A DNA stretch of 32,000 nucleotides from Nitrosospira multiformis ATCC 25196 (GTDB lineage: Bacteria > Pseudomonadota > Gammaproteobacteria > Burkholderiales > Nitrosomonadaceae). Positions 1-19,229 of this stretch are shown here, piece after piece (positions within the stretch are counted from its first letter, which is position 1; every line of letters begins with the position of its first letter). Location: assembly GCF_000196355.1 (NCBI RefSeq), contig NC_007614.1:2100001-2132000 (forward strand). The letters are read 5' to 3'. The translations under genes and the position numbers were made by a program. The notes below the pieces were generated by a model that was not told the DNA's origin, did not search any database, and saw only the letters and a list, made by a program, of their open reading frames with translations.

Positions 1-1887
1 GACGCTCACGCCCTTTGGTTTACCTGTGGAGCCTGAGGTATAGATGACATAGGCAAGGTTGTGTCCATGCAGGACGGCTTGCGGATTGCTGTCGGATTCA
101 TCCTCGAGGTCGAGCCTGTCCAGCTCCAGCACCGGATATTGGCCGGAGTGGGGAATGCGCGATCGAACCCGGCTTTGCGTCAGCAACAGCCCGATGCCAC
201 TGTCTGCCACCATGTAGGCCAGCCGCTCCTGCGGATATTCCGGATCAAGCGGCACATATGCTCCGCCCGCCTTCAGGGTGGCAAGCAACCCCACCACCAT
301 GTCGATCGAGCGCTCCACCGCAATGCCCACCTTGACCTCCGGCCCAACCCCAAGCCTGATCAAACGGTGCGCCAGGCGGTTCGCCCTTCGGTTCAGCTCG
401 CCGTAGCTCAATTCGACATCGCCAAAGATCAGGGCAATCGCTTCCGGCTGGACTTCAACCTGCCGCTCGATCAGCCTGTGCACGGGCTCGGTATTGGCGT
501 AGCGCTGCTCGTTGATCCCCCAGGCCTTGAGCTGCGCCCGCTCGGCTTCACTGAGGATGTCGATGTCGCCAAGGTTCTGCTGCGGATGCTCGGCCAGTTG
601 CTCCAGAAGAAGCAGATAATGGTTGCCAAGCCGCCCAATGGTGGCAGGTTCAAACAGCTCGGCGGCATAGGTGAAGGTGGCTTCCAGCCTGCCATCGGGC
701 TGCTCGACCGTATCCAGGGTCAGTTCGAACTGCGCCGCCTGCTCGCTCAGCTCGTGATTTTCCACCTTGAGCCCGGGCAATTGCTCGAGTGCCCGGTAGT
801 CTTCGCGCAGGTGGTTGTACATGACCTGAAACAGAGGATTCTGATTCAGGTTGCGTTCGGGTTGCAGGGCTTCAACCAGTCGCTCGAACGGCAAATCCTG
901 GTGGGTCTGGGCACCCAGCGCTGCTTCCCGCGTCTGATCGAGCAACGTATGCAGGGACATGCGCCCATCCATGAGGGTGCGCAATACCTGGGTATTGACG
1001 AAGAAGCCGACGATGTTTTCTATTTCAGCCCGATGCCGGTTGGCAATCGGCACGCCCACGCGGATATCCCGCTGGCCGGTATAGCGATAGAGCAGGCCTT
1101 GAAAGCCCGAGAGCAGCGCCATGAACAGGGTCGCTCCCTGGCTTTGCGCCTGACGCTGCAAGCGTGTAACCAGACCCGCAGGTAATGTGAAGGTGTGGCG
1201 CGCCGCACGGTAACTGGCCCTGGAAGATCGGGGGTGATCGGTGGGCAATTGCAATACCGGGTGCTCTTCCCCCAACTGGCTGCGCCAGTAGGCCAGCTGG
1301 CGCTCTTTTTCTCCCGCTTCCAGCCAGTTGCGCTGCCATATCGCGTAATCGGCATACTGGATCGGCAGGGCCGGCAGGGAGGGTTCCTGCCCCTGTTTCT
1401 CCCCCTCCTGCTCCTGCTGCACCCGTGCCCGATAGTGGGCGGCAAATTCGTCAATGACAATGCGGTTGGACCAGGCGTCCGAGATGATGTGGTGCATCAC
1501 CACCACGAGAAGATGTTCTTCCGCTGCAATGCGGATGAGGGCAACCCGAAGCAGCGGGCCTTGCGTCAGATCAAAGGGCGTGCCGGCTATCCGGCCCGCT
1601 TCTTCACCGGCTTGCGCTCTGGCTTGTTCCAGCGGCAGTCCGGAAAAGTCGGTCAGCGGAATTTCAAGCCGCGGCTCGTCTTCGATGATCTGCTCCGGCA
1701 ACCCTTCCGAATTGACCCTGAATATCGTACGCAACGACTCATGCCGCCTGCCCAGCGCCGCAAAGCTCCAACGCAGCGCTTCAATATCCACCCTGCCCGT
1801 CAGCCGCAATCCCCCGCTCAAATGATAAGCCGTGCTCAACGGCTCCAATTGCCATAAAAACCAGTGACGCTCCTGTGCGTATGAGAG
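1..1887. repeat. Intragenic long direct repeat, copy A (in the truncated NRPS gene)
   Basis: Offset of +3423 to copy B. Nt 161-1887 appear identical to 3584-5310: all overlapping six-frame ORF pairs have identical translations (for example 471..695 = 3894..4118, 1020..1460 = 4443..4883, 1195..1857 = 4618..5280), and spot checks of the raw lines agree. Nt 1-160 vs 3424-3583 show 22 mismatches by my count (about 86% identity). Similarity ends abruptly after 1887. Confidence 0.95.
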
Positions 1888-2034
1888 TGCGCTACGGTTT
1901 CCCGTTTTTTGCGGAACAATGGGAAGAAGAGAAAAATCGAATCCCCGTTTTTTCAGGGCATTCAGGAATTCTTTCTGTTTCTCGGGAGCAAGGGCTGCGA
2001 ACCGCTCGGCAATATCCTGCTTGTTCAATTCCAT
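1..2034 (-). CDS. Non-ribosomal peptide synthetase, N-terminal part (unique N-terminal linker/docking region, C domain, first third of A domain); 3' end lies beyond the window
   Basis: ATG at 2034-2032 directly abuts the TGA (2037-2035) of the upstream NRPS. My translation: MELNKQDIAERFAALAPEKQKEFLNALKKRGFDFSLLPIVPQKTGNRSALSYAQERHWFLWQLEPLSTAYH... The frame stays open to nt 1, where it reads NLAYVIYTSGSTGKPKGVSV (A-domain core A3). It is absent from the ORF track only because it has no in-window stop. From aa 50 onward it is the same sequence as the 2035..5451 product. Confidence 0.9.
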   Translation of the reverse strand, partial: MELNKQDIAERFAALAPEKQKEFLNALKKRGFDFSLLPIVPQKTGNRSALSYAQERHWFLWQLEPLSTAYHLSGGLRLTGRVDIEALRWSFAALGRRHESLRTIFRVNSEGLPEQIIEDEPRLEIPLTDFSGLPLEQARAQAGEEAGRIAGTPFDLTQGPLLRVALIRIAAEEHLLVVVMHHIISDAWSNRIVIDEFAAHYRARVQQEQEGEKQGQEPSLPALPIQYADYAIWQRNWLEAGEKERQLAYWRSQLGEEHPVLQLPTDHPRSSRASYRAARHTFTLPAGLVTRLQRQAQSQGATLFMALLSGFQGLLYRYTGQRDIRVGVPIANRHRAEIENIVGFFVNTQVLRTLMDGRMSLHTLLDQTREAALGAQTHQDLPFERLVEALQPERNLNQNPLFQVMYNHLREDYRALEQLPGLKVENHELSEQAAQFELTLDTVEQPDGRLEATFTYAAELFEPATIGRLGNHYLLLLEQLAEHPQQNLGDIDILSEAERAQLKAWGINEQRYANTEPVHRLIERQVEVQPEAIALIFGDVELSYGELNRRANRLAHRLIRLGVGPEVKVGIAVERSIDMVVGLLATLKAGGAYVPLDPEYPQERLAYMVADSGIGLLLTQSRVRSRIPHSGQYPVLELDRLDLEDESDSNPQAVLHGHNLAYVIYTSGSTGKPKGVSV

Positions 2035-5000
2035 TCAACTCTCCAGTAAATCAAGCAATTCCGCCATTCCCAACAGGTCCTCCTGCTCCGCGTCTTTTTC
2101 GGATGCCCGGGACCGTTTTTCCTGGATGGCAGAAGCAATATCCTTCAGCAGGGGATTCTCGAAATGCAGCCGCAAAGGCAACGAAATGGATAGGGCTTGT
2201 TGCAGTTTCTGCTGAACCTGGAGGATAGCGAGCGAATGTCCCCCCAGTTCAAAGAAGTTGTCATGCCGTCCCACCTGCGCCACACCCAGCACCTGCGCCC
2301 AGATACCTGCCAGCACCTCTTCCGCTTCCCCCCGCGGCGCCTCATAATGCTCCGTATGGGTAAACTCCGGCTCGGGCAAGGCCTTGCGGTCTACCTTGCC
2401 GCTCGGATTGAGCGGCAGACTCTCCAGCACCACAATCATTGAGGGCAGCATGTAGTCTGGCAAAACCTTGCCCAACGCTTCACGCAGTCGCCCAACTTCC
2501 ATCTCCGCTTCCGCATGCAAGGAAACATAGGCAACGAGTCTTGCTCCTCCCGCAGGATTGGAGCCGCGGGCACTTTCCCTGGCAACCACCACCGCTTCCC
2601 TGACTTCCGGTTGCGCCAGCAGTTGCATTTCGATTTCGCCCAGCTCGATGCGGAATCCCCGTATCTTGACCTGATGATCCAGCCGCCCCAGATATTCGAT
2701 CTGCCCGTCCGAGCGCCATCTTGCCAGATCTCCCGTGCGGTAGAGTCGTCCGCCTCCTCCATCGAAGGGATCGGCTATGAAACGCTCCGCCGTCAATCCT
2801 CCACGGTTGAGATAGCCGCGAGCGAGCAATTCCCCTCCTATGCACAGCTCACCGGGAATTCCAGGGGAAACAGGAGTCAGGTTGGCGTCCAGCAGATAGA
2901 TATGACGGGCGGCAAGCGGACTGCCAATCGACACAATAGGGACAATGGACACTTGGGAGGATATTTCGTTACCCTGCGAATAATCGCTGCAATTCCATAC
3001 GGTCGCGGTCACAGCGGCTTCGGTCGGACCGTAGGTATTCAGCAGGGTCACACCGTCGAATCCCGCCTCGCTCCAGGCTTTGAGTCCTTCAGGCGACATG
3101 GCCTCACCGCCCGCATGAACCTGGCGTAACAACCCGTAGTCGCGTGGACCCCCTCTGGCAAAATCCTGCACCAGCATGAACCAGTAGGCGGTGGTAAGAT
3201 CGGCAACCGTGATGCGCTTTTCGATCAGCTCGCGATAGAAAGTCTCGCTGTCCCACAGCGCCGGGCCGCGCAAGACAACGGCGGCTCCCGCGCACAAGGG
3301 GGGGAAAAGCTGTTCGATAAACCCATCGAAGTTGATGGTGGAAAATTGCAACATCCGGTCTGTGGAACCAAGACCGAAGAAGCCTACCGCTACCTGTGCA
3401 TGCTCAACCAGCGCATGATGCGCTACACTTACGCCCTTTGGTTTACCTGTGGAGCCTGAGGTATAGATGATGTAGGCAAGGTTGTATCCATGCAGGGCGA
3501 CTTGCGGGTTGCTGCCGGATTCCTCCTCGAGATCGAGCCTGTCCAGCTCCAGTACCACGCATTGGTCGGAATGGGGAATGGCGGATCGAACCCGGCTTTG
3601 CGTCAGCAACAGCCCGATGCCACTGTCTGCCACCATGTAGGCCAGCCGCTCCTGCGGATATTCCGGATCAAGCGGCACATATGCTCCGCCCGCCTTCAGG
3701 GTGGCAAGCAACCCCACCACCATGTCGATCGAGCGCTCCACCGCAATGCCCACCTTGACCTCCGGCCCAACCCCAAGCCTGATCAAACGGTGCGCCAGGC
3801 GGTTCGCCCTTCGGTTCAGCTCGCCGTAGCTCAATTCGACATCGCCAAAGATCAGGGCAATCGCTTCCGGCTGGACTTCAACCTGCCGCTCGATCAGCCT
3901 GTGCACGGGCTCGGTATTGGCGTAGCGCTGCTCGTTGATCCCCCAGGCCTTGAGCTGCGCCCGCTCGGCTTCACTGAGGATGTCGATGTCGCCAAGGTTC
4001 TGCTGCGGATGCTCGGCCAGTTGCTCCAGAAGAAGCAGATAATGGTTGCCAAGCCGCCCAATGGTGGCAGGTTCAAACAGCTCGGCGGCATAGGTGAAGG
4101 TGGCTTCCAGCCTGCCATCGGGCTGCTCGACCGTATCCAGGGTCAGTTCGAACTGCGCCGCCTGCTCGCTCAGCTCGTGATTTTCCACCTTGAGCCCGGG
4201 CAATTGCTCGAGTGCCCGGTAGTCTTCGCGCAGGTGGTTGTACATGACCTGAAACAGAGGATTCTGATTCAGGTTGCGTTCGGGTTGCAGGGCTTCAACC
4301 AGTCGCTCGAACGGCAAATCCTGGTGGGTCTGGGCACCCAGCGCTGCTTCCCGCGTCTGATCGAGCAACGTATGCAGGGACATGCGCCCATCCATGAGGG
4401 TGCGCAATACCTGGGTATTGACGAAGAAGCCGACGATGTTTTCTATTTCAGCCCGATGCCGGTTGGCAATCGGCACGCCCACGCGGATATCCCGCTGGCC
4501 GGTATAGCGATAGAGCAGGCCTTGAAAGCCCGAGAGCAGCGCCATGAACAGGGTCGCTCCCTGGCTTTGCGCCTGACGCTGCAAGCGTGTAACCAGACCC
4601 GCAGGTAATGTGAAGGTGTGGCGCGCCGCACGGTAACTGGCCCTGGAAGATCGGGGGTGATCGGTGGGCAATTGCAATACCGGGTGCTCTTCCCCCAACT
4701 GGCTGCGCCAGTAGGCCAGCTGGCGCTCTTTTTCTCCCGCTTCCAGCCAGTTGCGCTGCCATATCGCGTAATCGGCATACTGGATCGGCAGGGCCGGCAG
4801 GGAGGGTTCCTGCCCCTGTTTCTCCCCCTCCTGCTCCTGCTGCACCCGTGCCCGATAGTGGGCGGCAAATTCGTCAATGACAATGCGGTTGGACCAGGCG
4901 TCCGAGATGATGTGGTGCATCACCACCACGAGAAGATGTTCTTCCGCTGCAATGCGGATGAGGGCAACCCGAAGCAGCGGGCCTTGCGTCAGATCAAAGG

Positions 5001-5451
5001 GCGTGCCGGCTATCCGGCCCGCTTCTTCACCGGCTTGCGCTCTGGCTTGTTCCAGCGGCAGTCCGGAAAAGTCGGTCAGCGGAATTTCAAGCCGCGGCTC
5101 GTCTTCGATGATCTGCTCCGGCAACCCTTCCGAATTGACCCTGAATATCGTACGCAACGACTCATGCCGCCTGCCCAGCGCCGCAAAGCTCCAACGCAGC
5201 GCTTCAATATCCACCCTGCCCGTCAGCCGCAATCCCCCGCTCAAATGATAAGCCGTGCTCAACGGCTCCAATTGCCATAAAAACCAGTGACGCTCCTGTG
5301 CGTATGAGAGCGGCACCCGCGCGGAAGCATTGCGGCAAGGGATATTCGATTGAAGTGCTGGAGCATGAGCTCCGGCCAGCCGCTGCGCCAGCCTCTCCCG
5401 TTGCTCGGGGGTCAGGCGGGCGCGTCTTTGAACTAGACTGCTGCTATGCAT
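2035..5451 (-). CDS. Non-ribosomal peptide synthetase, one module C-A-T
   Basis: 1138-aa ORF. C domain about aa 47-490 (nt 3982-5313): LSYAQERHWFLWQL, MHHIISDAWS. A domain about aa 515-1025 (nt 2377-3909): LKAGGAYVPLDP, YIIYTSGSTGKPKG, NTYGPTE, GELCIGGELLARGY, YRTGDLARW, GRLDHQVKIRGFRIELGEIE, NPSGKVDR. T domain about aa 1040-1108 (nt 2128-2334): FFELGGHSL. Acidic C-terminal tail EKDAEQEDLLGMAELLDLLES. Confidence 0.95.
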   Translation of the reverse strand: MHSSSLVQRRARLTPEQRERLAQRLAGAHAPALQSNIPCRNASARVPLSYAQERHWFLWQLEPLSTAYHLSGGLRLTGRVDIEALRWSFAALGRRHESLRTIFRVNSEGLPEQIIEDEPRLEIPLTDFSGLPLEQARAQAGEEAGRIAGTPFDLTQGPLLRVALIRIAAEEHLLVVVMHHIISDAWSNRIVIDEFAAHYRARVQQEQEGEKQGQEPSLPALPIQYADYAIWQRNWLEAGEKERQLAYWRSQLGEEHPVLQLPTDHPRSSRASYRAARHTFTLPAGLVTRLQRQAQSQGATLFMALLSGFQGLLYRYTGQRDIRVGVPIANRHRAEIENIVGFFVNTQVLRTLMDGRMSLHTLLDQTREAALGAQTHQDLPFERLVEALQPERNLNQNPLFQVMYNHLREDYRALEQLPGLKVENHELSEQAAQFELTLDTVEQPDGRLEATFTYAAELFEPATIGRLGNHYLLLLEQLAEHPQQNLGDIDILSEAERAQLKAWGINEQRYANTEPVHRLIERQVEVQPEAIALIFGDVELSYGELNRRANRLAHRLIRLGVGPEVKVGIAVERSIDMVVGLLATLKAGGAYVPLDPEYPQERLAYMVADSGIGLLLTQSRVRSAIPHSDQCVVLELDRLDLEEESGSNPQVALHGYNLAYIIYTSGSTGKPKGVSVAHHALVEHAQVAVGFFGLGSTDRMLQFSTINFDGFIEQLFPPLCAGAAVVLRGPALWDSETFYRELIEKRITVADLTTAYWFMLVQDFARGGPRDYGLLRQVHAGGEAMSPEGLKAWSEAGFDGVTLLNTYGPTEAAVTATVWNCSDYSQGNEISSQVSIVPIVSIGSPLAARHIYLLDANLTPVSPGIPGELCIGGELLARGYLNRGGLTAERFIADPFDGGGGRLYRTGDLARWRSDGQIEYLGRLDHQVKIRGFRIELGEIEMQLLAQPEVREAVVVARESARGSNPAGGARLVAYVSLHAEAEMEVGRLREALGKVLPDYMLPSMIVVLESLPLNPSGKVDRKALPEPEFTHTEHYEAPRGEAEEVLAGIWAQVLGVAQVGRHDNFFELGGHSLAILQVQQKLQQALSISLPLRLHFENPLLKDIASAIQEKRSRASEKDAEQEDLLGMAELLDLLES
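3424..5310. repeat. Intragenic long direct repeat, copy B (in the C-A-T NRPS gene)
   Basis: See copy A. It corresponds to aa 48-676 of the 1138-aa NRPS, that is the C domain, the C-A linker and the A domain up to core A3. Confidence 0.95.
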
Positions 5452-5517
5452 GATGGTGCGGATAAAAATGATGGAACATCGGGAGATGGAATGGCTTCAC
5501 ATCAAAGGGGCGGGAAA

Positions 5518-8500
5518 TCATAGGCACTCGATCTCGTCCAGTAATTTCGTTTCTACCAGCTCGGCGAGACCTGCAACGGTGGGGGACCGGAAAAAATCTG
5601 CAGGACGCATGTCGATTCCGAAAACTGCCCGCACTCTCGAAAGCAGTTGAATACCCAGCAACGAATCCCCCCCCAATTCAAACAGATTGTCATGAATACC
5701 GACGGCATCCATTCCAAGCAAGCTCTGCCAGATCTCTGCAATGCTCTTCTCCAGATCGCTCTCTGGAGCGACAAAGGCCGTGTCCAGGGCAGGTCGCGGA
5801 TAGTGCGGCTGGCCCCCCTGCTCATGCTGCCCGTTCTCCGCCAGCGCGAAAGGCTCTCCGACGAGGGTTACCAGATCCTCCTGCGTCTGATTGAGGCGGG
5901 CGTGCAAGTCAAGGGTGGAGACGATCACCTGGGGCCTGACCACGTTATTGACGATGTGCTCGAAAGCCTCAGCGCCTTCCCTGGGTGAAATTCCCATCCC
6001 CTCGGGCATTGCCATGTTGGCCGCCATCCCCACGTCCCGCCAGCCATCCCAGTTAACGGATATGACGGGAAATGTGAAGCCGCTATGGGCGGAACGGGTA
6101 GCCCCGCGGGCGACAGCATCGAGGTAGGCATTGGCGGCACAGTAATCGACCTTGCTGAGGCCACCCGCAATGGCTGCCAGCGATGAGCACAGCAGCATGA
6201 AATCCAGGGAGGCATCCCTGAATACAGCCTGCAATGCCTGCGTTCCCTGTACCTTGGGGGCAAACACTTTCGCCACCTCCCCCCCGTTTTTCACCGAAAT
6301 GAGATCGGTACCGACCTCTCCCGCGGAATGAATCACGCCGTGAATAGCACCGAAGTGCTCATAGGCCTGTGTCACCGCCGTCTTCAACTCCGCCTGGATC
6401 GCAACGTCGGCCTGCAATACCAGCACTTCCGCGCCCAACGCCTCCAGGTGCATGACTTTCTCGATCTTGCTGCGCGTGCGGTCTGCTTTTTCCGCTGCTG
6501 AAATGACATTGGACCACTGCTCGCGGGCTGGAAGCAGGGAGCGTCCCATCAGCACCAGCTTTGCGCGATAGTTGCGCGTCAGATGCTCGGCCAGCGTCAG
6601 GCCGATGCCGCCGAGGCCACCGGTAATCAGATAGACGCCGCCATTTCGAAGGCGCAGGTGCGCTTTCCCCGGTTTCCCACATTGAATGGGTTCGAAAGTC
6701 TGAATCCAGCGGTGGGGTCCCCGGTAGGCGACCATTGAGGAAACCGGCTCAGCCTGAGACTCGGCCACTATCTGATGCACAAGCCGGTTTTTTGCAGTAC
6801 CGTCGCCTGCAGGCAACTCGATATCAACCAGCCGGCAGCTCAGGTAGGCGTATTCCTGGGGAATGACCTTGCAGGGTCCAAGCAGCAGTGCTTTTTCCGG
6901 GCGAAGGGATTCGCTGCCGGTGACATCCTCGAACTGGTCGGTGATGACCATGATTTCGACCTTCGCCTCGCTCGGGATCACCTGTTTGGCACTCTCCAGC
7001 GCCTGGGCGAGATAAAACAGACTGAAGAAATTCCTGGCCTCGATTTCCACTTGATTTTCGACCTGGCTTTCCCTATAAATGCGCCCGCCGCCATTTCCGG
7101 TCAGGCTCCACAAGTGAAAGATATGGCCGAGGGTCCTGCCATCCTCGTCGATGTTGCGCAACAGAAGATCGTAATCCTGACGTTCGCCCGGACGGACAAC
7201 ATAGTGGTCCTTGTCCTGACGGTAAAAGGCCGGGCCCGCGGAGACAACGATTGGCTTTATTCCCAGCGTAAGCAAATGCCCTGTCAGGGCCACCCCGAAG
7301 GGATGATCATCTGCGAAGAGGATGAATGATCTTCCCTGATCCAGGAGGATGCTCTCTTGTTCAATGCTGTCCGAGCGGCGCCACGAAGGGGTGTAAAACC
7401 ATTCATCGAGCGGTCGAACTACCGGCCCGGCATTATCCCTCACCTGCCGGCGTGCACCTGGCTCAAGGCCAGCCATGAGCCTGGGCCTGTCTTCTTCCCC
7501 CACTGCCTTTGCAGTCTTCGCAGTCTTTTGGTTTCCGGGCTTGATCCAGTATGACTGGCGTTCGAATGGGTAAGTCGGCAAGGAGACGCGGCGGCGGCGC
7601 TCGTCAGCGTAAAAACTCCTCCAATCGATATCGACCCCGGCAAGCCACAATCGTCCCAGGCAAAGATAAAAATGTGCTTGAGATTGGTTTGCTCTGCCAG
7701 GATGGGGCAAGGATGAAAGGATGAGGTGTTCCGGTTTTGCTTCGGAGTGACGCCGCGCAAGGGTAGTCAATGTTTCGCCCGGTCCCACCTCCAGCAGGAT
7801 TCGATTGGGATTGCCCAACAGCTCGCGCAGTCCATCATCGAAGCGTACCGTCCCGCGCACGTGCTGTCTCCAATACCCGGGATCAGTGGCTTCCTGCGAA
7901 GTAATCCAGTCGCCGCTGAGATTGGAAAGAAAGGGAATCTGCGGGGGGTGCAACTCCATGGCCGAAATCAGCTCCATGAAAGCCGGCAACATCGGCTCGA
8001 CCTGTGCGGAGTGAAATGCATGGGAAACATGAAGGCGTCGCGCCTCGACACCTTTATTACGCAGATCGGTTTCCAACGCTTCAATGGCGGCGACCGGGCC
8101 TGAAAGAACGCACAATTCAGGCCCGTTGACAGCGGCGAGATCGCAGCTTTCCGACAGGTAAGGCGTGATTTCCGCCTCGGGCAGCATGACCGCGAGCATG
8201 GCGCCCGTCTCCGTCTGCTGAAGCAAGCGTCCGCGCAAGGCAACCAGGCGTAGCGCGTCTTTGAGCGAAAATATGCCCGCAAGACATGCCGCGACGTATT
8301 CGCCTACACTGTGACCGATCATTGCCGCCGGTTGGATGCCCCAGGACATCCATAGCTGTGCAAGAGCATATTCGACGGCAAAGAGTGCGGGCTGGGTAAC
8401 TTCCGTCTGTTCGAGGCGCGCGGACAACTCCTTCTTCCGCGCCTCATCCCCACCTTCAAGGTTAGGGTCAAGGTTAGGATATAAGGCGGTGCGCAAGTCG

Positions 8501-10242: not shown

Positions 10243-13200
10243 TAATGCGTCCTCCCTGCTCTCTGCCTGCGTTGTATGAACGTCGCTCTCTGCCGCTGCG
10301 CCCGTTCCTGATGGCGCTGCAAGGGCAGACGCCCCTTATCCGCCTGCCTGTCCTCCTGGCCGAGAAATTTGGCCAGGCTCGCGACGGTGGTATATCTGAA
10401 AAGATCGATGATGGCGATGCGTGTTTTCAACCGCTCTTCCAGTTTGCATTGCACCTTGATGAGCAGCAGCGAATGCCCGCCCAGATCGAAAAAATTGTTG
10501 TGCAGCCCCACTCGGGGTAGCTCCAGGACTTCCGCCCAGATCTCCGAAATCATCGTTTCCACGGCATTGACGGGCGTCTGATAGGCCGCCTCATCGATCT
10601 GCTCCGCCAGGGGCAAGGGCAACGCCTGGCGATCGACCTTGCCATTGGGGTTGAGCGGCAGACTATCGAGCAGCACAAACGAACCAGGCAGCATGTAATC
10701 CGGAAGCACAGCAGCCAGGGCAGTCTTGAGCATGGATGCATTGAGTGTTACGCCGTGATGCGCGGCGACGTAGGCGATGAGACGCGTTCCATTGCGGCTT
10801 TCCTTTGCCACTACCGCCGCCTCGCGAACTCCGGGCTGGGCCAGCAACTGCCCCTCGATTTCGCCCAGTTCAACCCGAAAGCCGCGAAGCTTGACCTGGT
10901 GATCGAGTCGGCCCAAGTATTCGAGTTGGCCGCCATTGTCCTCATTGCGCCAGCGCACGCGATCCCCCGTGCGGTAAAGGCGGCTCCCATCCGGTGCGAA
11001 AGGATCGGCAACGAAGCGGTCTGCGGTGAGACCGGGACGATCAAGGTATCCGCGGGCAAGTCCTGTCCCACCGATATAGAGTTCTCCGGCACAGCCGGGA
11101 GGCATGATATTCAAGTCCTCATCGAGTACGTACAACTTGCGATCTCCAACGGCACGGCCGATGGGCGCGAACTCGTGGAGAATACGAACCTCAGCGGTTT
11201 CAGACGCATGGGCTACCCAGGCGGCTGGAGTGATGACCGTTTCGGTAGGCCCGTACGCGTTGACCAGCCGGGCTTGCGGAAGAGCCGCCTGCGTTGCGGC
11301 CAGGTCGGCTGCAAACCATGCTTCGCCGCCGGCTATGCAAGTGCGTACCGACGGGGCACCGTCCTGCATCAAGGGAAGCAGCATCCGTAGATAAGCGGGC
11401 GGCAAGTGCAGCGTGGTGATGCTGTGCTTTCCGATCTGATCGACGAAACCGTCGCCAGCAAGATCCCGTGTCGATGAAAGGACAAGCGTCCCACCTTCGC
11501 ACAAGGGCGTGATCCACTGTTCCGCAGCCGCATCGAAATTCATCGAGAAAAACATGAGTTCGCGATCGCCAGGACGTACGTCGTAGATTTCCCTGATCGC
11601 TGCCAGATGCATTGCCAGGGGACCATGGCTTACTCCTACTCCTTTCGGTCTGCCGGTCGATCCGGATGTATAGATGACATAAGCGAGATTGTCGGGATGT
11701 AACGCAATCTCCGGGTTGGTCTCTGCTACCCCCTTCACGTCGACGCTATCCAGTTCCAGCACCGAAAGCTTTTCCGAATCGGGGATACGGTTCCTGAGAG
11801 GGGATTGCGTCAACAGCAACCGGATGCCGCTATCCTCAACCAGATAGTCGAGGCGTTCGCGCGGATAGTCGGGATCGAGCGGTACATATGCTCCTCCTGC
11901 CTTGAGAATGCCCAGCAGGCCGACGATCATCTCGATGGAACGTTCTACCGTAATGCCAACCTTTACTTCCGCTTTGACTCCCAGAGCGATTAAATGGTGT
12001 GCGAGCCGGTTTGAGCGACAGTTCAGCTCCTGGTAGGTTATTTCGGTATCGTTGAAAATCAGGGCGCAGACGTTCGGGCGTTCTTCCGCCTGGCGCTCTA
12101 TGCGCCGATGTACAGGTTCATGGGCCGCATGACGGGCAGCTTCATGGGCGGCTGGATGAGCAGATCGATCGAACACCGCGCTACCTGAAAGGTGCGCTCC
12201 AGCATTCGCCCCCCATGCTCCCCATGCTCCGAGCTGCGCCATATCGCTCTCGCTCAACAGAGGCACATCGCCGATGGTTATTTCCGGCTGCCCGGCCAGT
12301 GCCCGCAACAGAGCCACATACTGGCGTCCGAGGCGCTCGATCGTGCGGATATCGAAGAGCTCTGACGCATAGATGAAGCTTGCACGCACGTTTCCATCGG
12401 GTGATTCGATCGTTTCCAGCGTCAGCTCGAACTGTGCAGCCTGCTCGCCCAACGGATAGTCAACGATCTTCAGCTCCTTGATTTGATCGAGCTTGCGTCG
12501 GTCGCTTACCAGATGATTAAGGGTCACCTGGAACAGCGGCGTCCGGCTCAGGCTTCTCTCCGGCTGCAATGCCTCAACCAACTGCTCGAAGGGCAAATCC
12601 TGGTGTGCCTGGGCGTCGATTGCCGCCTCCCTGACCTGCGCGAGCAGGGTTGACAAAGCCATGCGGCTGTCGATCTTCCCGCGCAGTACCTGGGTATTCA
12701 CGAAAAAACCGACGATGCCTCTGGTTTCAGTCCGGTTGCGATTGGCGACCGGCACGCCGACACGAATATCCTTTTGTCCCGTGAGGCGATAGAGCAAAGC
12801 TTGAAAACCCGCCATCAGCGCCATGAAAAGGGTCGCACTGCGGTTATCCGGGCGTTGGGCAAGGCTTCGCAGCCTGCTCAGCACATCCGGCGGCAGGTCG
12901 AAAGAATGATGTGCCGCCTGATAATTTGCCACAGGCCGCCGCGGATGATCGGCCGGCAATTCCAATACCGGATGTTCGGTGCCCAGGCAATCACGCCAGT
13001 AGGCCAGTTGCCTGTCTTTCTCGCCTGCTTCCAGCCAGTTGCGCTGCCACTCGGCATAGTCCGCGTAGCGGATGGGTAACGGGTCGAACTGCGGCAACTG
13101 CCCTTGGGCATGAGCCATATACCCGATGGCGAGCTCGTCAAGCAACACCTGCATCGAGGCACCATCGGAGATGATGTGATGCATGGCCATAACCAGGATG

Positions 13201-15647
13201 TGCTCATCCTGCGTCAGCCGGATCAGGACTACTCGCAGCAACGGGCCCTGTGTCAGATCGAAGGGATCCGAAATGATCCGGTCGGCCTCCTCTTTCGCAT
13301 ACGCTTCACGCACAAAGGCGGGAGTGTCGTCCAGATGGATGTGTGGAATATGCAACCGCACTGCCGGTTGGATCACCTGCTCCGCGGAACCTTCCGCTCC
13401 TGTCCGGAAAACGGTACGCAAGGATTCGTGGCGCGCGGCCAGCCCATCAAGGCTGGCCTGCAACGCCTGGGCATCCAGGGAGCCTGACAATCGCAACGCC
13501 TGCTTGATGTGATAGGCGGTGGATGTCCGGTCCAGTTGCCAAAGGAACCAGAGACGCTGTTGACCAAAGGAGAGCGGTGCCGCATCGGCTGCTCCAATCC
13601 TCCTTGCGGTGGAAAGAATGCGGATGCTGGCAGTGCGTCTGGGAGTGCCAACCGACAGTACGCGCTTGATTTCCTCTGCGCACTCGCGCAACTTTGGATT
13701 CTCGAACAGGCTGCGGAGCGTGAAATCGATCTGCCAATGCTCAGCAATACGCGCCACAGCCTGAACTGCCGAGAGTGAGCTTCCGCCGCTGGCAAAAAAA
13801 TGATCCTCGCGCCCCAACCCACGGCGATTCAACACGGTTTCCCAGAGGCCCGCGAGCGAAATTTCGACGTCATCCGTCAGCGTGAGTACGGGCCGAACGC
13901 TGCCGCCCAGCACGAAATTGCCAAACTCATAGACGGCATATGCGTCCAGGGTGCGCTCGCGCCAGCCTTGGCGGCAGGCTGCGCGCTGCAATTTTCCGCT
14001 GGAAGTCTTGGGCAATCCTCCCGGATTCAGTAGTACCACCACCGAGAGCGGCTCATGGCAGCTTCCGCTCACGGCCTCACTCAACGCCTGCACCAGAGTT
14101 TCAACGGCGATAAGCTTCTGCATGCCGCGGGATATCTCCACGGCCATGCCGATTCCTTCCCCGTTTTCGGTTTCTACCGAAAACGCGGCCACCCTTCCCT
14201 TCCGGGCGGCCTCCACTTCATCCTCGATCACTTGCTCGAGGTCCTGCGGGTAGACGTTCTGCCCCCTTATGATGATGAGATCCTTGCGCCTTCCTGCAAT
14301 GTATAACTGTCCATCATGTATGAAGCCAAGGTCTCCGGTGCGGAGCCAACGTCCCCCCTCGCGGGAAACAAAAGTTTCGGCTGTCTCCTCTGGTTTTCGC
14401 CAGTAGCCGCAAGCCAGACTGGCACCATCCGTCCAGATCTCTCCGATCGTACCATCGGGCAATTGGACACCTGTTTCCGGATCTACAACCCTCACCGTAT
14501 GACCGGAAGCCGGCACACCGCAAGCTACCAGAGAGGTTCCCTGCTCCGCCACTTCGACCTTGCCTTGCGCGAGCAGCTGGGTAGAGAAGCAATGTGCCTC
14601 CATGCCGTCTCCACGCGTCCCACCGGTGACAAAAAGCGTTGCTTCGGCCAGGCCGTAACAGGGATAAATTGTGCCAGGTGGAAATCCTGCCGGTGCGAAG
14701 CGTTCGATAAATGCTTTCATCGTTTCCCGGCGTACCGGTTCGGCACCCGAAAAGGCGACACGCCAGCTCGACAAATCGAGCTCTTGTAGCTGAGCATCGC
14801 TTACCCGGTCCGCACAGAGTTGAAACGCAAAATTGGGCGCGCCACTCACCGTCGCACGGTAGTGCGAAATGGCTTTCAACCATCGTACCGGTCGTTCGAT
14901 AAAAAATCGGGGCGTCATCAGCACGACAGGAATGCCCCGATGGATGGGTTGCAGCAAGCCGCCGATCAGACCCATATCGTGATACAGCGGCAACCAGCTC
15001 ACGAATATGTCGTTTGCATTGATCGACATGCCCTCCTCGAACACTCTCGTATTTGTCATCAGGCTGCCGTGGCTCACCATCACCCCTTTGGGCGTAGATG
15101 TAGACCCCGAGGTATATTGCAAAAACGCGATATCTCCCTCTGCGGGAGAACATTCACGCCATGCGGAGGCGTTATCGCATTTCACCGTGTCCACAGTCAG
15201 CACGATCGCATAAGAAAACTGTTCCACCGCGGCACGAGCAATCAAGGGCATAATTTCGCTCGTGGTCAATATGCAGCGTGCCTCAGCATCGGCTGCAATG
15301 GCGAGCAGGCGTGCCAGATGCCGTTCTCGCACCATCTCCGGCGGAAAAACGGGCACAGCGATGAGGCCTGCATAAAGACAGGCGAAGAAGCCGATTACGT
15401 AATGCTCATCATTTTCCATGAGCAACAGGGCGCGTTCGCCTGCCGAAAAACGGTCCTGCAAAATGGCTGCGAGTGCACGAACATGTTGATCCAATGTTCT
15501 ATAGTCGAATGCTTTTTCCACGGCTCCCTCGCCTTCCTGGCCCATTACCGTCAAGGCGAGGTCTGTGGGACGTGCCAACGCGAGATTACGGAGATGCGTC
15601 ACCAGGTTTTGGGGGTAAATGCGGTGAAAAATTGACCTTGGCGTCAT
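10242..15647 (-). CDS. Hybrid loading/elongation NRPS: fatty acyl-AMP ligase (FAAL)-ACP-C-A-T
   Basis: 1801-aa ORF. FAAL-like adenylation domain about aa 20-575 (nt 13923-15590): FLQYTSGSTSTPKGVMVSH, YGLAEATL, WLRTGDLGF, GRRKDLIIIRGQNVYPQDLE. ACP about aa 592-665 (nt 13653-13874): FFASGGSSLS. C about aa 688-1130 (nt 12258-13586): LSFGQQRLWFLWQL, MHHIISDGAS. A about aa 1180-1680 (nt 10608-12110): YVIYTSGSTGRPKG, NAYGPTE, GELYIGGTGLARGY, YRTGDRVRW, NPNGKVDR. T about aa 1693-1762 (nt 10362-10571): FFDLGGHSL. Arg/Gln-rich C-terminal tail. Confidence 0.95.
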   Translation of the reverse strand: MTPRSIFHRIYPQNLVTHLRNLALARPTDLALTVMGQEGEGAVEKAFDYRTLDQHVRALAAILQDRFSAGERALLLMENDEHYVIGFFACLYAGLIAVPVFPPEMVRERHLARLLAIAADAEARCILTTSEIMPLIARAAVEQFSYAIVLTVDTVKCDNASAWRECSPAEGDIAFLQYTSGSTSTPKGVMVSHGSLMTNTRVFEEGMSINANDIFVSWLPLYHDMGLIGGLLQPIHRGIPVVLMTPRFFIERPVRWLKAISHYRATVSGAPNFAFQLCADRVSDAQLQELDLSSWRVAFSGAEPVRRETMKAFIERFAPAGFPPGTIYPCYGLAEATLFVTGGTRGDGMEAHCFSTQLLAQGKVEVAEQGTSLVACGVPASGHTVRVVDPETGVQLPDGTIGEIWTDGASLACGYWRKPEETAETFVSREGGRWLRTGDLGFIHDGQLYIAGRRKDLIIIRGQNVYPQDLEQVIEDEVEAARKGRVAAFSVETENGEGIGMAVEISRGMQKLIAVETLVQALSEAVSGSCHEPLSVVVLLNPGGLPKTSSGKLQRAACRQGWRERTLDAYAVYEFGNFVLGGSVRPVLTLTDDVEISLAGLWETVLNRRGLGREDHFFASGGSSLSAVQAVARIAEHWQIDFTLRSLFENPKLRECAEEIKRVLSVGTPRRTASIRILSTARRIGAADAAPLSFGQQRLWFLWQLDRTSTAYHIKQALRLSGSLDAQALQASLDGLAARHESLRTVFRTGAEGSAEQVIQPAVRLHIPHIHLDDTPAFVREAYAKEEADRIISDPFDLTQGPLLRVVLIRLTQDEHILVMAMHHIISDGASMQVLLDELAIGYMAHAQGQLPQFDPLPIRYADYAEWQRNWLEAGEKDRQLAYWRDCLGTEHPVLELPADHPRRPVANYQAAHHSFDLPPDVLSRLRSLAQRPDNRSATLFMALMAGFQALLYRLTGQKDIRVGVPVANRNRTETRGIVGFFVNTQVLRGKIDSRMALSTLLAQVREAAIDAQAHQDLPFEQLVEALQPERSLSRTPLFQVTLNHLVSDRRKLDQIKELKIVDYPLGEQAAQFELTLETIESPDGNVRASFIYASELFDIRTIERLGRQYVALLRALAGQPEITIGDVPLLSESDMAQLGAWGAWGANAGAHLSGSAVFDRSAHPAAHEAARHAAHEPVHRRIERQAEERPNVCALIFNDTEITYQELNCRSNRLAHHLIALGVKAEVKVGITVERSIEMIVGLLGILKAGGAYVPLDPDYPRERLDYLVEDSGIRLLLTQSPLRNRIPDSEKLSVLELDSVDVKGVAETNPEIALHPDNLAYVIYTSGSTGRPKGVGVSHGPLAMHLAAIREIYDVRPGDRELMFFSMNFDAAAEQWITPLCEGGTLVLSSTRDLAGDGFVDQIGKHSITTLHLPPAYLRMLLPLMQDGAPSVRTCIAGGEAWFAADLAATQAALPQARLVNAYGPTETVITPAAWVAHASETAEVRILHEFAPIGRAVGDRKLYVLDEDLNIMPPGCAGELYIGGTGLARGYLDRPGLTADRFVADPFAPDGSRLYRTGDRVRWRNEDNGGQLEYLGRLDHQVKLRGFRVELGEIEGQLLAQPGVREAAVVAKESRNGTRLIAYVAAHHGVTLNASMLKTALAAVLPDYMLPGSFVLLDSLPLNPNGKVDRQALPLPLAEQIDEAAYQTPVNAVETMISEIWAEVLELPRVGLHNNFFDLGGHSLLLIKVQCKLEERLKTRIAIIDLFRYTTVASLAKFLGQEDRQADKGRLPLQRHQERAQRQRATFIQRRQRAGRTH

Positions 15648-15683
15648 AGTGAAACCTTTCAGTGGACTGACTTTGAAACCTTT

Positions 15684-16526
15684 TCAGGCGTGATCTATCT
15701 GGCGAACGGAATGATCGCAAGCCTGCGGAGATGCACCCCGATCTTGGCAGGGCTCCAGGCTTGACAGGGGAAGCCAGGATGTCTGTCGAGACACTTCCCG
15801 GCTTTTCCCTTGGGTTGAAGCCCGGTCATGAGTCTGGAATGCGAGAGCCGCTGCATAGCCATCGGATACCGGAAGGCGCCAGGCTTGTATTTCCGGCCAC
15901 TCCGGGGAATCATGCGCAATCTGGTAAGCCTCGTCGTCCCGGGGCAGAATGGACACGGATTGCAGGTGTTCGGAGATGCCCAATCCCAAGGCTTTCAGCA
16001 CGGATTCCTTCGCTACCCAGTGCTGGATGAAATCTTTGGAGGTCTGCAACGCAAGGTGGCGCTCCAATGGAGAAAAGACGTAGGCCGCGAGCTCCTCGAG
16101 GTTTTTAGCATTGAGGACGCGCTCTTCGCATTCGATATCGACGCCGACCGGTCCGCTGGTCGAAAGAGCAATCAGGGCGCAACAACCGGCATGAGAAACA
16201 TTGAACTCGATCTCTGGCTCACCTTCCAGCCGCGGCTTGCCATATGGATTGACCACGAAGCGCAGCTGGTCGGGCGGCAACATCAACCGCGCTCCGACAA
16301 GTCGCCGCAGCGCGGCACGGGTTGCGACGGACCGCACACGGTCTTCTTGCCGCCGAAACCGTTGCGCATGCGCACGCTCTTCTGCAGATAACAACGCCAG
16401 TTCGGCATCCGGCACCGAGAGCCCAACATCAAGCTCGAGCAACCACACTTCCATGCCATCCGGAATGCGCTCGGACAGCGGCAAGCGCCTTATGGGAGAC
16501 CTTAGTGGATACCTTATGGAATACAT
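15684..16526 (-). CDS. 4'-phosphopantetheinyl transferase (Sfp/EntD type)
   Basis: Motifs FNVSHAG, GVDIE, WVAKESVLKALG. The longest ORF starts at 16526, overlapping the thioesterase stop by 13 nt. An internal ATG at 16454 (MEVWLLELD...) is an equally plausible start. Confidence 0.85.
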   Translation of the reverse strand: MYSIRYPLRSPIRRLPLSERIPDGMEVWLLELDVGLSVPDAELALLSAEERAHAQRFRRQEDRVRSVATRAALRRLVGARLMLPPDQLRFVVNPYGKPRLEGEPEIEFNVSHAGCCALIALSTSGPVGVDIECEERVLNAKNLEELAAYVFSPLERHLALQTSKDFIQHWVAKESVLKALGLGISEHLQSVSILPRDDEAYQIAHDSPEWPEIQAWRLPVSDGYAAALAFQTHDRASTQGKSREVSRQTSWLPLSSLEPCQDRGASPQACDHSVRQIDHA

Positions 16527-17278
16527 AGGGACATATCAGCAGGTTCTCGATGTGCTTCCTGATATACCTCTGGACGGTATAGAGCCATTCTCTGGACGAG
16601 CACGGGAAGAAAGGCCTCTTCGTGCTGACGGAGAAAGAAATGCCCTCCTTCAAACAGATCCAGTGACAACTCTTCTGTAGTTTCGGATTGCCATGCTTCC
16701 AGTTTCGACTCATGAATTTCATCGCCCCGGCCCCCAAAAACATGAATCGGCAGCGGCAAAGGCAAGGATTGCGTGTGGCGAAAGCTCGCGCAGATGCGGT
16801 AGTCCGCACGCAGCAGGCTGAGCGTCAGGGACAACAACTCCGGGCTCTCGAACACCTCTTCCGGTGTCCCTTTCTGCTTGCGCAGATCAGCAATGAGCGA
16901 CGCGTCGGCATTCTTGTCCGCATAACGCCGCCAGTCCTGCCGGGAGGGTGCGGCACAGCCCGACACAAACAGGGCAAGAGGCAAGGGTCTTTCTCTCTTG
17001 CGCAAGGAATGGGCAATTCCGAAAGCGAGCAGCGCTCCCATGCTGTGCCCGAAGAATGCGTATCGACGGGGCGGGCACGCCTCGATCTCATCCGTTAGGC
17101 GCTCGACCAGTGAAGGGAAGCTTTTCGCGAACATTTCATCCAGGCGGCCTCCACGACCCGGCAGCTCGACCGGTTCCACTTGCACCCAGGAAGGCAATCT
17201 GCGCCGCCAGCGCAGATACATGACCGAGCTCGCGCCTGCGCATGGCAGCGCGAAAAGTGTCAGGATCGGGGACATCAC
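16514..17278 (-). CDS. Type II (editing) thioesterase
   Basis: 254 aa. Alpha/beta-hydrolase nucleophile elbow GHSMGA, N-terminal [11 protein letters not shown]-terminal GGHFFL. These are typical of NRPS/PKS-associated TEII proteins. The start overlaps the stop of the upstream MbtH-like gene by 4 nt. Confidence 0.9.
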
Positions 17279-17505
17279 CTGGCTTCAGCGGGACATTGTT
17301 CGTCCATGAAGCGCCGCAGGCTGAGGGGGCGCATATCCGTCCAGACTTTCTCTACATGTTCCAGGCAGGTTTTCTTGTCTCCCAGCACTCCGGTGTCCCG
17401 CCATCCTCCCGGAATGGCTTTCCACTCCGGCCAGATGGAGTACTGCTCTTCATGATTGACCAGCACGCGAAATGTCCCGTCTTCGCGGTCGAAGCAACTT
17501 GTCAT
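17275..17505 (-). CDS. MbtH-like protein
   Basis: [24 protein letters not shown]...[17 protein letters not shown] matches the MbtH signature (three conserved Trp, SxWP, PxGW, WTDxRP). I prefer the ATG at 17505 because an AAGGGGA Shine-Dalgarno sequence lies 6 nt upstream. The longest ORF starts at 17550. Confidence 0.9.
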
Positions 17506-17609
17506 GCTTGTTCCCCTTATGTCTGTAAACAGATGCGTTCCAGATTCCATGGACGAATTCCACAGATTGGAAATGCGTCTTAATCTTATTTGGAACCTTG
17601 ATTAGCTAG

Positions 17610-17633
17610 ACGAATAAGGATTCGAAGAATTTA
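17610..17633 (-). promoter_or_regulatory. Candidate ECF-sigma (PvdS-type iron-starvation box) promoter: TAAAT-N16-CGT
   Basis: The minus strand reads ccTAAATtcttcgaatccttattCGTct. TAAAT is the complement of 17629-17633, CGT the complement of 17610-17612, and the spacer is exactly 16 nt. It is oriented toward the mbtH-like gene, 57 nt upstream of the 17550 ATG and 102 nt upstream of the 17505 ATG. Confidence 0.5.
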
Positions 17634-17750
17634 GGAAAACGACTGATAGCTGACCGGTTTTTGATCAGAGAGATCGAAGAGATAGCTTGATAGCGAAAAT
17701 TTTTTGTGACTTTTTAATCCCGGATAGCTCAGGCATTAAGCTATATCTTC

Positions 17751-17769
17751 GATAATAATGAGTTTTATA
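17751..17769. promoter_or_regulatory. Weak Fur-box-like 19-mer
   Basis: gataataatgagttttata matches GATAATGATAATCATTATC at 13/19 positions by my count. It lies in the AT-rich non-coding region upstream of the NRPS operon. Confidence 0.2.
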
Positions 17770-18005
17770 CCCATTTCTATTATGATGGATCGCGATGCCT
17801 TGCTCTAATGAGCGTTAGATCCCCTTCGCGAGCCTCTAGAGTTCTGTTTGATATCTGATTTTCTCCGTGTCGAACTCTCGATACATTTCTCCTGCTTTGC
17901 CGCATCCTGGTTACAGAATAGTTGAAAAGAAACGCGAATAAGGATTAGTATCGCATGACCTGCCCCTCCTATTAGCTTCATGACGTAGTAGAGTCCGATT
18001 CTTAA

Positions 18006-18044
18006 TGACCCTACCCCAGAATCAGTACCGGCGCATTCAACCGG
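18006..18044. repeat. IS30 element left terminal inverted repeat
   Basis: tgaccctaccccagaatcagtaccggcgcattcaaccgg. The reverse complement of 19221-19260 is tgaccctaccccaataaactgtaccggcgcattcaaccgg. The outer 13 nt and inner 21 nt are identical, with a short mismatched or indel core. Confidence 0.8.
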
Positions 18045-18086
18045 TCAGTGCAACACCTATTGATTCTTGATTTGTAGAGGTGTGCA

Positions 18087-19229
18087 ATGGCTAGCGTATA
18101 TGGTGGCATGACTGATGAACGCAAAGCGTGTATTTGGCGGTTATGGCAGCAAGGGGTTGCTATGAGTGTAATTGCTAGAGATATTGCAAAGCCGCCTGCG
18201 ACGGTATATTCGTATCTTCTCTACCATGGAGGCATAAAGCCGAGGCAACGATCTCGTCGATCTGGTTGCCTGTCGCTGAAGGAACGTGAAATGATTTCTC
18301 GTGGATTGGCTAGTTGCAAAAGCCTGCGCAGGATTAGCCAGGAACTTGGTCGGGCTGCCTCTACGATATCAAGAGAAATTGCCCGCAATGGCGGACCTGA
18401 AAAATATCGGGCATGCCATGCCGAGAAAGCTTTTCTCAAGCGCAGTCGACGCCCCAAGCCCACATTGCTTTCCCAGGATGAGGAGCTAAGAGGCGTGGTA
18501 ACAGCACTGCTGGAGGCTGATTGGTCGCCAGAACAGATAACCGGATGGCTCAAGCGACACTCTTCTGACGGAAAAGCGATGTGTGTATCGCATGAGACGA
18601 TCTACAAATCCCTGTTCATTCAAACTCGTGGCGTACTACGCCAGGAACTGAAGAAGCACTTGCGCACCAAAAGAATGTTTCGTCACGCCAAGTCCCACCG
18701 GGTTGCAGGCAGAGGACACATTACCGATGCGATTTCTATTCGAGAGCGCCCTGCACAGGTGGAAGACAGGGCCCTGCCGGGGCATTGGGAAGGAGACCTG
18801 CTTATAGGCTCGAGTAATAGTGGCATTGCTACGATGGTCGAGAGATACTCCAGATTCACCGTGCTTTGCAAAGTGCAGGACAAGCGCGCTGAAAGTGTTG
18901 TTCAGTCCTTGATAACCCAGATGCGCATGCTTCCTGAGCAACTGCGTAAGAGCCTGACATGGGATAGAGGCCAGGAACTTGCCGCACACAAGCGATTTAC
19001 CATGGCCACCAATATGGCCGTCTATTTCTGCGATCCGAGCAGCCCATGGCAAAGGGGAACCAATGAGAATACCAATGGCCTGCTAAGACAATACTTTCCA
19101 AAAGGAACGAGTTTGGCGCCATACACACAGTGTCAACTGAATGAGGTCGCCGAAAAACCAAACTCTCGCCCGAGGAAAACCTTGGATTTTAGAACACCCG
19201 CCCAAGTACTGAATGAAGCGTTGCACTGA
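18087..19229 (+). CDS. IS30-family DDE transposase
   Basis: 380 aa. N-terminal helix-turn-helix regions, HWEGDL, TWDRGQE, PWQRGTNENTNGLLRQYFPKG (the IS30 DD(33)E-type catalytic signature). Confidence 0.95.
   Translation: MASVYGGMTDERKACIWRLWQQGVAMSVIARDIAKPPATVYSYLLYHGGIKPRQRSRRSGCLSLKEREMISRGLASCKSLRRISQELGRAASTISREIARNGGPEKYRACHAEKAFLKRSRRPKPTLLSQDEELRGVVTALLEADWSPEQITGWLKRHSSDGKAMCVSHETIYKSLFIQTRGVLRQELKKHLRTKRMFRHAKSHRVAGRGHITDAISIRERPAQVEDRALPGHWEGDLLIGSSNSGIATMVERYSRFTVLCKVQDKRAESVVQSLITQMRMLPEQLRKSLTWDRGQELAAHKRFTMATNMAVYFCDPSSPWQRGTNENTNGLLRQYFPKGTSLAPYTQCQLNEVAEKPNSRPRKTLDFRTPAQVLNEALH

Follow-up and report, generated by a model that had tools for sequence, protein, structure and literature searches.

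The biosynthetic gene cluster that occupies the left part of a 32,000-nt stretch of the genome of the soil ammonia oxidiser Nitrosospira multiformis ATCC 25196 (NC_007614.1, positions 2,100,001 to 2,132,000; this whole stretch is referred to below as the window) very probably makes a hydroxamate lipopeptide siderophore of the variochelin, vacidobactin and variobactin kind known from Variovorax. We favour this reading because the cluster is syntenic with a Variovorax siderophore locus (L015, from V. paradoxus), its adenylation domains carry ornithine (Orn)-type and hydroxy-Orn-type codes, it is preceded by an iron-starvation-type promoter box, and its far end, seen in a related metagenome contig (L085), carries receptor, N-oxygenase, acyltransferase and exporter genes. 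The original prediction, made from the window alone, had proposed a lipopeptide siderophore and had pointed to a resemblance to the variochelins; this evidence supports both. We found no description of the Nitrosospira product in the literature searched, although systems of this general type are well known.

The cluster is a hybrid of nonribosomal peptide synthetases (NRPS) and a polyketide synthase (PKS), and the window contains its regulatory end together with three and a half of its biosynthetic genes, counted from the start. Mapping of open reading frames (ORFs) and Pfam searches place seven co-directional genes on the minus strand over positions 1-17550. The operon opens with a gene for an MbtH-like protein (17275-17550, 91 aa; PF03621, E 2.9e-23) that is 70% identical to its counterpart in L015, followed by a type II thioesterase (TEII; 16514-17278, 254 aa; PF00975, E 8e-48) and an Sfp-type 4'-phosphopantetheinyl transferase (PPTase; 15684-16526, 280 aa; PF01648 and PF22624, with a weak match to the HetI-type NCBIfam model). 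PPTase, TEII and MbtH are the usual helpers of such assembly lines, serving to attach the carrier cofactor, to clear mis-loaded carriers and to support the adenylation (A) domains. Behind them, Pfam delimits a lipo-initiation and first-module protein made up of fatty acyl-AMP ligase (FAAL), acyl carrier protein (ACP) and condensation (C), A and thiolation (T) domains (10242-15647, 1801 aa), whose approximate sub-ranges are FAAL 13947-15533, ACP 13653-13877, C 12231-13586, A 10638-12098 and T 10362-10550. Next come a PKS module with ketosynthase (KS), acyltransferase (AT), ketoreductase (KR) and ACP domains (5518-10242, 1574 aa; approximately KS 9064-10203, AT 7738-8625, KR 6037-6639 and ACP 5554-5742), the C-A-T protein of NRPS module 2 (2035-5451, 1138 aa) and the start of a fourth synthetase gene (1-2034), which covers module 3 through its C domain and ~155 aa into its A domain and runs leftward past nt 1. 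The tight packing and the domain orders given in the original prediction were reproduced by this map, and the gene junctions are all as it described them: MbtH and TEII overlap by 4 nt and TEII and PPTase by 13 nt, a 36-nt gap separates PPTase from the FAAL-NRPS gene, the latter shares one base (10242) between its stop and the start of the PKS gene, a 66-nt gap precedes the C-A-T gene, and the stop (TGA) of that gene is followed at once by the ATG of the next. The G+C content of the cluster is 58-60%, against 51-55% in the flanks outside it.

The order of domains in the first synthetase is, according to Pfam, AMP-binding, PP-binding, Condensation, AMP-binding and PP-binding. When its N-terminal 580 aa were compared with the PDB, the top matches were FAALs (7r7g, 3kxw, FadD32, FadD23 and 3pbk, E 1e-136 to 1e-91), whereas CoA ligases reached 1e-32 at best, so that this ACP-fused adenylating domain lies nearer to the FAALs. 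It would activate a fatty acid and load it onto its own ACP, and the first C domain would then N-acylate residue 1, in line with the colinear N-acylated peptide that had been predicted. Module 1 has the HHIISDG motif in its C domain and GGHSL in its T domain. In the PKS, the KS motifs TACSTS (with the Cys), HGTGT and NVGH are intact, the AT contains GHSVG and HAFH, both of which had been reported, and the ACP contains GGDSL; HHxxxDG/A of the C domains and GGHSL of the T domains are likewise intact. Every catalytic motif that was checked is thus present, and the description of the assembly line as intact stands. HAFH is the motif of malonyl-type AT domains, and Pfam found no DH, ER or MT domain in the PKS module. 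The KS-AT-KR-ACP module would therefore extend residue 1 by two carbons from malonate and reduce the ketone, giving a 4-amino-3-hydroxy acid without a 2-methyl branch, which agrees with the gamma-amino-beta-hydroxy unit proposed earlier. Modules 2 and 3 would add two more residues. As had been noted, neither E, Cy nor MT domains nor a terminal thioesterase (TE) or R domain was found within the window by Pfam, and the same holds for TauD.

The A-domain codes were read by anchoring on the numbering of the GrsA Phe-A domain, and the control gave the expected DAWTIAAICK. Module 1 reads DAEHIGAITK, an Arg-like code that departs from the Arg consensus D[AV]ED[IVL]GA[VI][TD]K of a 2025 survey of signature sequences (PMC12283262) by having His instead of Asp at position 278; from this code we infer a basic residue 1. 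Module 2 reads DGEDHGTVTK. This code has been assigned to Orn-activating domains, the Lys code differing solely at the ninth position (…VVK) (PMC12283262). For module 3, the code DGECTGGIT- was read from a draft contig of the same strain (L001) and is of the modified (N-hydroxy or acyl) Orn type; DGECTGGITK, together with DGEGSGGVTK and DVWNIGLIHK, is among the codes accepting N-hydroxylated or acylated Orn (PMC12283262). Modules 2 and 3 would thus add an Orn-type and an N5-hydroxy/acyl-Orn-type residue, respectively, and the line is predicted to make an N-acylated peptide of the form acyl-NH-CH(basic side chain)-CH(OH)-CH2-CO-(Orn-type)-(D-?N-acyl-N-hydroxy-Orn)-..., in which the D configuration is tentative. 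Among the nitrifier loci the module 1 code is constant with one clear substitution (DAEPIGAITK in N. briensis), and the modules behind the PKS vary, with an Orn-type, Ser or Gly-type module first and a hydroxy-Orn-type module after it.

A PKS-extended N-terminal residue derived from Arg or Orn is just what siderophores of Variovorax contain (PMC10999976; bioRxiv 10.64898/2026.02.28.708764). Variochelins are N-acyl hexapeptides in which residue 1 is an Arg extended by methylmalonate and keto-reduced (4-amino-7-guanidino-3-hydroxy-2-methylheptanoate), the remainder being beta-hydroxy-Asp, Ser, Pro and two N-acetyl-N-hydroxy-Orn residues, and disruption of varG, described as the PKS gene, abolishes all five variochelins (PMC10999976). 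Vacidobactin, variobactin and imaqobactin contain an analogous Orn-derived unit, and vacidobactin combines a PKS-extended Orn-derived first residue with hydroxy-Orn ligands (bioRxiv 10.64898/2026.02.28.708764). We compared the window with the published description of the var cluster (KT900023) of Variovorax boronicumulans and Variovorax sp. H002. Both have the order FAAL-ACP-C-A-T, KS-AT-KR-ACP and C-A-T, in which an acylated basic residue 1, predicted to be Arg-like in the window, is converted by a single PKS module into a 4-amino-3-hydroxy acid before further NRPS modules act. They differ in the extender unit, since the HAFH motif of the window predicts no 2-methyl branch where variochelins have one from methylmalonate, and in the His that replaces Asp at code position 278 of module 1.

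The comparison with V. paradoxus L015 could be made protein by protein. The order of genes is the same (sigma factor, DUF4880 protein, MbtH, TEII, PPTase, FAAL-NRPS, PKS and NRPS), with identities of 42% for the sigma factor, 47% for the DUF4880 protein, 70% for MbtH, 53% for TEII, 37% for PPTase, 53% for the FAAL-NRPS and 51% for the PKS. However, module 1 of L015 has the modified-Orn type code DVWNIGLIHK where the window has DAEHIGAITK, its later modules read Ser and DGEGSGGVTK in contrast to DGEDHGTVTK and DGECTGGIT-, and its AT carries an atypical VAFH in place of HAFH. From the species and the codes, L015 would be of the vacidobactin or variobactin type rather than a variochelin locus. 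More distant likeness is found in the Nostocales, where many Nostoc and Calothrix loci, which we take to be cyanochelin clusters, have a PKS 46-58% identical to that of the window behind a FAAL-NRPS (37% identical in L017). Two of them, L017 and L065, lack the head of sigma factor, MbtH, TEII and PPTase genes, and we rate their identity lower than that of Variovorax.

The genes to the left of nt 1 were read in relatives. The draft contig L001 (18.8 kb, GCA_900108135.1) is the single record with an identical 1138-aa protein; it ends inside gene 4, to which it adds just 220 aa. Counterparts of gene 4 in L014 and L082 encode C-A-T-E-C-A..., and the TE lies further on, as anticipated by the claims that at least two further amino acids follow and that the line continues leftward. 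A homologue search with the tail of a 3983-aa NRPS of L082 gave, among the matches listed, none above ~1,600 aa. In strain Nl18, C-A-T-TE closes the line, genes for a C70/C39-like peptidase and an esterase come next, and it was through the peptidase gene behind this TE that the far end was reached, indirectly, in L085. This contig has 88.6% DNA identity to Nl18 over 5.8 kb (terminal module, peptidase and esterase) and carries the terminal TE. Past the esterase it encodes a FhuA/FoxA-like TonB-dependent receptor, a Lys/Orn N-oxygenase (PF13434), an IucB-like acyltransferase (PF13523), a cyclic-peptide/PvdE-type ABC exporter (TIGR01194, above cutoff) and a PepSY_TM protein. Such a set is what a hydroxamate siderophore system normally has for synthesis, export and re-uptake. 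Between its acyltransferase and exporter operons, L085 also contains a piece of an IS605 OrfB gene (13203-13652). If the cluster of the window ends in the same way, module 3 would be followed by an epimerase, as in the relatives, and the line would go on to a terminal TE releasing the product; the N-oxygenase and the IucB-like acyltransferase would make the hydroxamate precursor, the PvdE-like exporter, and possibly also the RND pump adjacent to the cluster, would secrete the siderophore, and iron would be recovered through the FhuA/FoxA-like receptor and the PepSY_TM protein.

Regulatory signals point in the same direction. A predicted PvdS-type iron-starvation box, TAAAT-N16-CGTCT, is located at 17608-17633 on the minus strand, 58 nt upstream of the MbtH ATG. 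It is the sole match to TAAAT-N16-CGT in the window and lies on the correct strand; since ~0.5 matches are expected by chance in the whole window, the chance of finding one on the right strand of this ~540-nt intergenic region is small. The box is kept in the other loci of the N. multiformis group, and independently of it Massilia and Pseudoduganella also have the box upstream of MbtH, though their spacers differ in sequence. The exporter gene of L085 has a TAAAT-N16-CGTCTTT box 41 nt ahead of it and a variant, TAAAA-N16-CGTCTTT, lies ahead of the operon of acyltransferase, oxygenase and receptor. The gene for an extracytoplasmic function (ECF) sigma factor of the FecI/PvdS class (20287-20829, minus strand; Sigma70_r2 and r4 domains; NF005448, 232 bits against a cutoff of 190) adjoins the cluster in Nitrosospira, Nitrosovibrio, Nitrosomonas, Variovorax and Pseudoduganella. 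This arrangement fits control in the manner of PvdS, by which the adjacent sigma factor would drive expression through TAAAT-N16-CGT promoters.

Between the sigma gene and the operon, a 71-aa protein (19930-20145, minus strand) consists of DUF4880 alone, the N-terminal domain of FecR (PF16220). Orthologues of 66-71 aa occupy the same position in L015 (~3210-3425), L022 (~4540-4743), L014 (~2655-2855) and L005, and the copies in Nitrosospira, Nitrosovibrio, Variovorax and Pseudoduganella all stop just past GLVPP, with no transmembrane or periplasmic part. We had considered this ORF as the remnant of a FecR gene broken by the IS30 element nearby, an explanation that we rejected given the equally short orthologues in Variovorax, Pseudoduganella and Nitrosovibrio. 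N-terminal fragments of FecR are known to activate FecI, and this small protein may partner the sigma factor on its own. Fur probably controls the sigma gene itself: a weak Fur-box-like site (20834-20852, minus strand; 14/19 to GATAATGATAATCATTATC) lies directly upstream of it. It is one of four sites at 14/19 in the window, and a 13/19 site lies upstream of the MbtH gene. A strict search of the window allowing <=3 mismatches gave no match at all, the best sites being those at 13-14/19.

The same signals could be taken to indicate a pyoverdine-like, chromophore-bearing siderophore. Indeed, the system was reportedly labelled a 'pyoverdine-like siderophore' in the 2008 genome paper of N. multiformis, so the genes appear not to be new. 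The likeness to the Pseudomonas pathway extends to the PvdS-type sigma factor and box, to MbtH and TEII, to an acyl-adenylating start domain such as that of PvdL, and, in L085, to a PvdA-family N-oxygenase and a PvdE-like exporter; moreover, Pseudomonas pyoverdine synthetases are many of the best-scoring NRPS matches outside the nitrifiers. However, the line in the window places a PKS behind module 1, which pyoverdine lines do not have, no Glu, Tyr or Dab-type codes for a chromophore appear in the modules examined, the acyl chain is presumably retained, and the nearest syntenic loci are the lipopeptide clusters of Variovorax, Massilia and Pseudoduganella. We consider a pyoverdine system extremely unlikely, and the label appears to be wrong in kind.

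Several observations weigh against a hydroxamate siderophore. The window itself encodes no chelating-group chemistry, the tailoring and uptake genes having been seen just in L085, and neither a beta-hydroxy-Asp module nor a TauD domain, a hallmark of the variochelins, turned up in the Nitrosomonadaceae sequences examined, the window included. Should modules 1 and 2 load Arg and Orn without modification, a hexadentate complex would demand more bidentate ligands than the shortest relatives have. The codes are predictions, and for DAEHIGAITK we found no matching characterised code in the literature. On the regulatory side, the exact TAAAT-N16-CGT motif was not found in the more distant ammonia-oxidiser loci, and the Fur-like box is weak (14/19) in intergenic regions that are AT-rich. 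Finally, the literature searched yielded no experimental report of a Nitrosospira siderophore.

Some of these points would suit a cationic lipopeptide with a role unrelated to iron, such as an antibiotic, a surfactant or a signal, with iron-type genes beside it by coincidence. Lipopeptides other than siderophores are also known from FAAL-primed NRPS-PKS lines, modules 1 and 2 have codes of the basic-residue type, and no ligand-forming enzyme is encoded in the window. Yet the head of sigma factor, DUF4880 protein and MbtH is conserved and shared with the Variovorax siderophore loci, the promoter box common to the exporter and acyltransferase operons ties these genes together, and a hydroxamate-type receptor, an N-oxygenase and an IucB-like gene stand at the end of the cluster in a close relative, all of which makes a non-iron function quite unlikely. 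A lipopeptide serving mainly another metal is less plausible still. Ammonia oxidisers have a high demand for copper, as in ammonia monooxygenase, and the sequence does not fix the ligand set; against a copper carrier stand the receptor of the FhuA/FoxA ferric-hydroxamate type and the hydroxamate-forming enzymes of L085, the iron-starvation-type control elements, and the homologous Variovorax products, which are proven iron chelators (PMC10999976; bioRxiv 10.64898/2026.02.28.708764). We regard this role as very unlikely and retain the hydroxamate siderophore as the best explanation of the cluster.

The cluster is not confined to strain ATCC 25196. The PKS is 95% identical in N. multiformis Nl12 and Nl7, 89% in Nl18, and 64-78% in N. 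briensis, Nitrosospira sp. NpAV, Nitrosovibrio Nv6 and Nitrosomonas communis, nitrosa, Nm132, Nm33 and Nm34; beyond the nitrifiers it falls to ~51% in Variovorax, Massilia and Pseudoduganella and to 46-58% in many Nostocales. Further homologues are named in Nitrosospira Nsp14, Nl5, Nsp2 and Nsp5, Nitrosovibrio Nv4, Nitrosomonas oligotropha and N. halophila. Methylosinus trichosporium OB3b, too, has a plasmid with an annotated C-A-T protein, which shares 61% identity with that of the window. Judging from these sequences, the head of the cluster is common to Nitrosospira, Nitrosovibrio and several Nitrosomonas lineages, and the modules behind it differ.

A possible source of this variation lies within the window. 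A perfect direct repeat of 1,727 nt is present at 161-1887, in the C domain and A start of module 3, and at 3584-5310 in module 2 (100% identical, offset 3423 nt). The perfect part spans the C domain and reaches ~100 aa into the A domain, identity including the flanks is 98.9% over 1,887 nt, and the module 2 and 3 proteins are identical across about 560 aa. The repeat suggests a very recent gene conversion or duplication, and it offers a ready substrate for the deletion or duplication of modules. Because of it, draft assemblies probably break or collapse at this point. Strains labelled N. multiformis do differ behind the constant head, and some of this difference may be an assembly artefact: Nl7 reads module 2-E-Gly-..., L082 reads Orn-type, Ser and hydroxy-Orn-type-E, and the window reads Orn-type and hydroxy-Orn-type. 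The short line of Nl18 (C-A-T-C-A-T-TE) may be such a collapse, and the Nl18 assembly also contains an orphan contig (L084, FOCT01000036.1, 2,987 nt) that encodes condensation-family domains alone. Apparent truncations and frameshifts of module 2 in L003 and L005 were rejected as real, being runs of masked bases in the A domain (665 and 729 N, at L003 17167-17834 and L005 ~17153-17880) that mimic frameshifts. L082 (10001-13365, on a 3.47-Mb contig of GCA_900103165.1) encodes module 2 in two pieces, of 871 aa and 266 aa, owing either to a frameshift or to a sequencing error.

Upstream of the operon, an IS30-family element (18014-19260) carries a transposase ORF (18087-19229; HTH_38 and rve) and ends in inverted repeats of 41 nt with 90% complementarity. 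Relative to strain Nl7, positions 17956-19268 of the window stand in for ~620 nt that include the 5' end of a hexapeptide-repeat acyltransferase gene, of which a remnant without this end is left at 19269-19756. The gene is intact in Nl7 (197 aa, L005 1520-2113) and absent in Nl18, so it is a variable passenger outside the cluster; as a candidate for the hydroxy-Orn acyltransferase it was rejected, since it is missing in Nl18 and truncated in the window. The insertion bears on whether the cluster still works in this strain. A silent or decaying cluster that gives no product would accord with an IS30 element ~380 nt upstream of the promoter box, with the loss of ~620 nt of Nl7 sequence, with the deletion-prone 1.7-kb repeat and with related assemblies in which modules are frameshifted or differ. 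Nevertheless, all seven ORFs are open and the catalytic motifs intact across 17.5 kb, the promoter box and the sigma gene were spared, and the insertion hit just the non-conserved hexapeptide transferase gene. We judge a silent cluster unlikely.

On the other side of the sigma gene, and divergent from it, lies an RND efflux operon on the plus strand (20944-26841), formed by an outer membrane factor (OMF; 20944-22332), a membrane fusion protein (MFP; 22317-23558) and an AcrB-like pump (23491-26841), with Pfam matches to OEP, HlyD and ACR_tran. The OMF gene adjoins the sigma gene in Nitrosospira and Nitrosovibrio, but not in the Nitrosomonas or Variovorax loci, and the motif search of the whole window found no iron-starvation box ahead of the operon. 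It is a possible exporter of the product, linked to the cluster by synteny alone. Further right, 27049-30874 encodes housekeeping-looking and seemingly unrelated proteins: proB (glutamate 5-kinase with a PUA domain), a DUF3501 protein and a CCG and 4Fe-4S protein.

A wider proposal, which we advance tentatively and with slightly more doubt than conviction, is that a family of PKS-extended lipo-hydroxamate siderophores belongs to the betaproteobacterial ammonia oxidisers as a group (Nitrosospira, Nitrosovibrio and the Nitrosomonas communis, nitrosa and oligotropha lineages), built on a constant acyl-(Arg-like, His278)-malonate head and a tail rapidly reshuffled through gene conversion between C domains, of which the perfect 1,727-nt repeat would be a frozen instance. 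In chemical terms this would be a malonate-extended variant of the variochelin/vacidobactin class, maybe without beta-hydroxy-Asp, and thus an incremental and not a conceptual novelty. Ammonia oxidisers have a large iron need for their haem-rich enzymes. For the model species N. europaea, neither the genome content nor the CAS assay indicated a siderophore (PMC3050691). A siderophore family of the nitrifiers' own, if true, would overturn the N. europaea-based picture of these bacteria as pure siderophore pirates. With an intact, widespread cluster of this kind in soil Nitrosospira, some nitrifiers would provide iron for themselves and perhaps for neighbouring organisms too, with a bearing on nitrifier ecology and on the interactions of ammonia oxidisers with nitrite oxidisers and plants.

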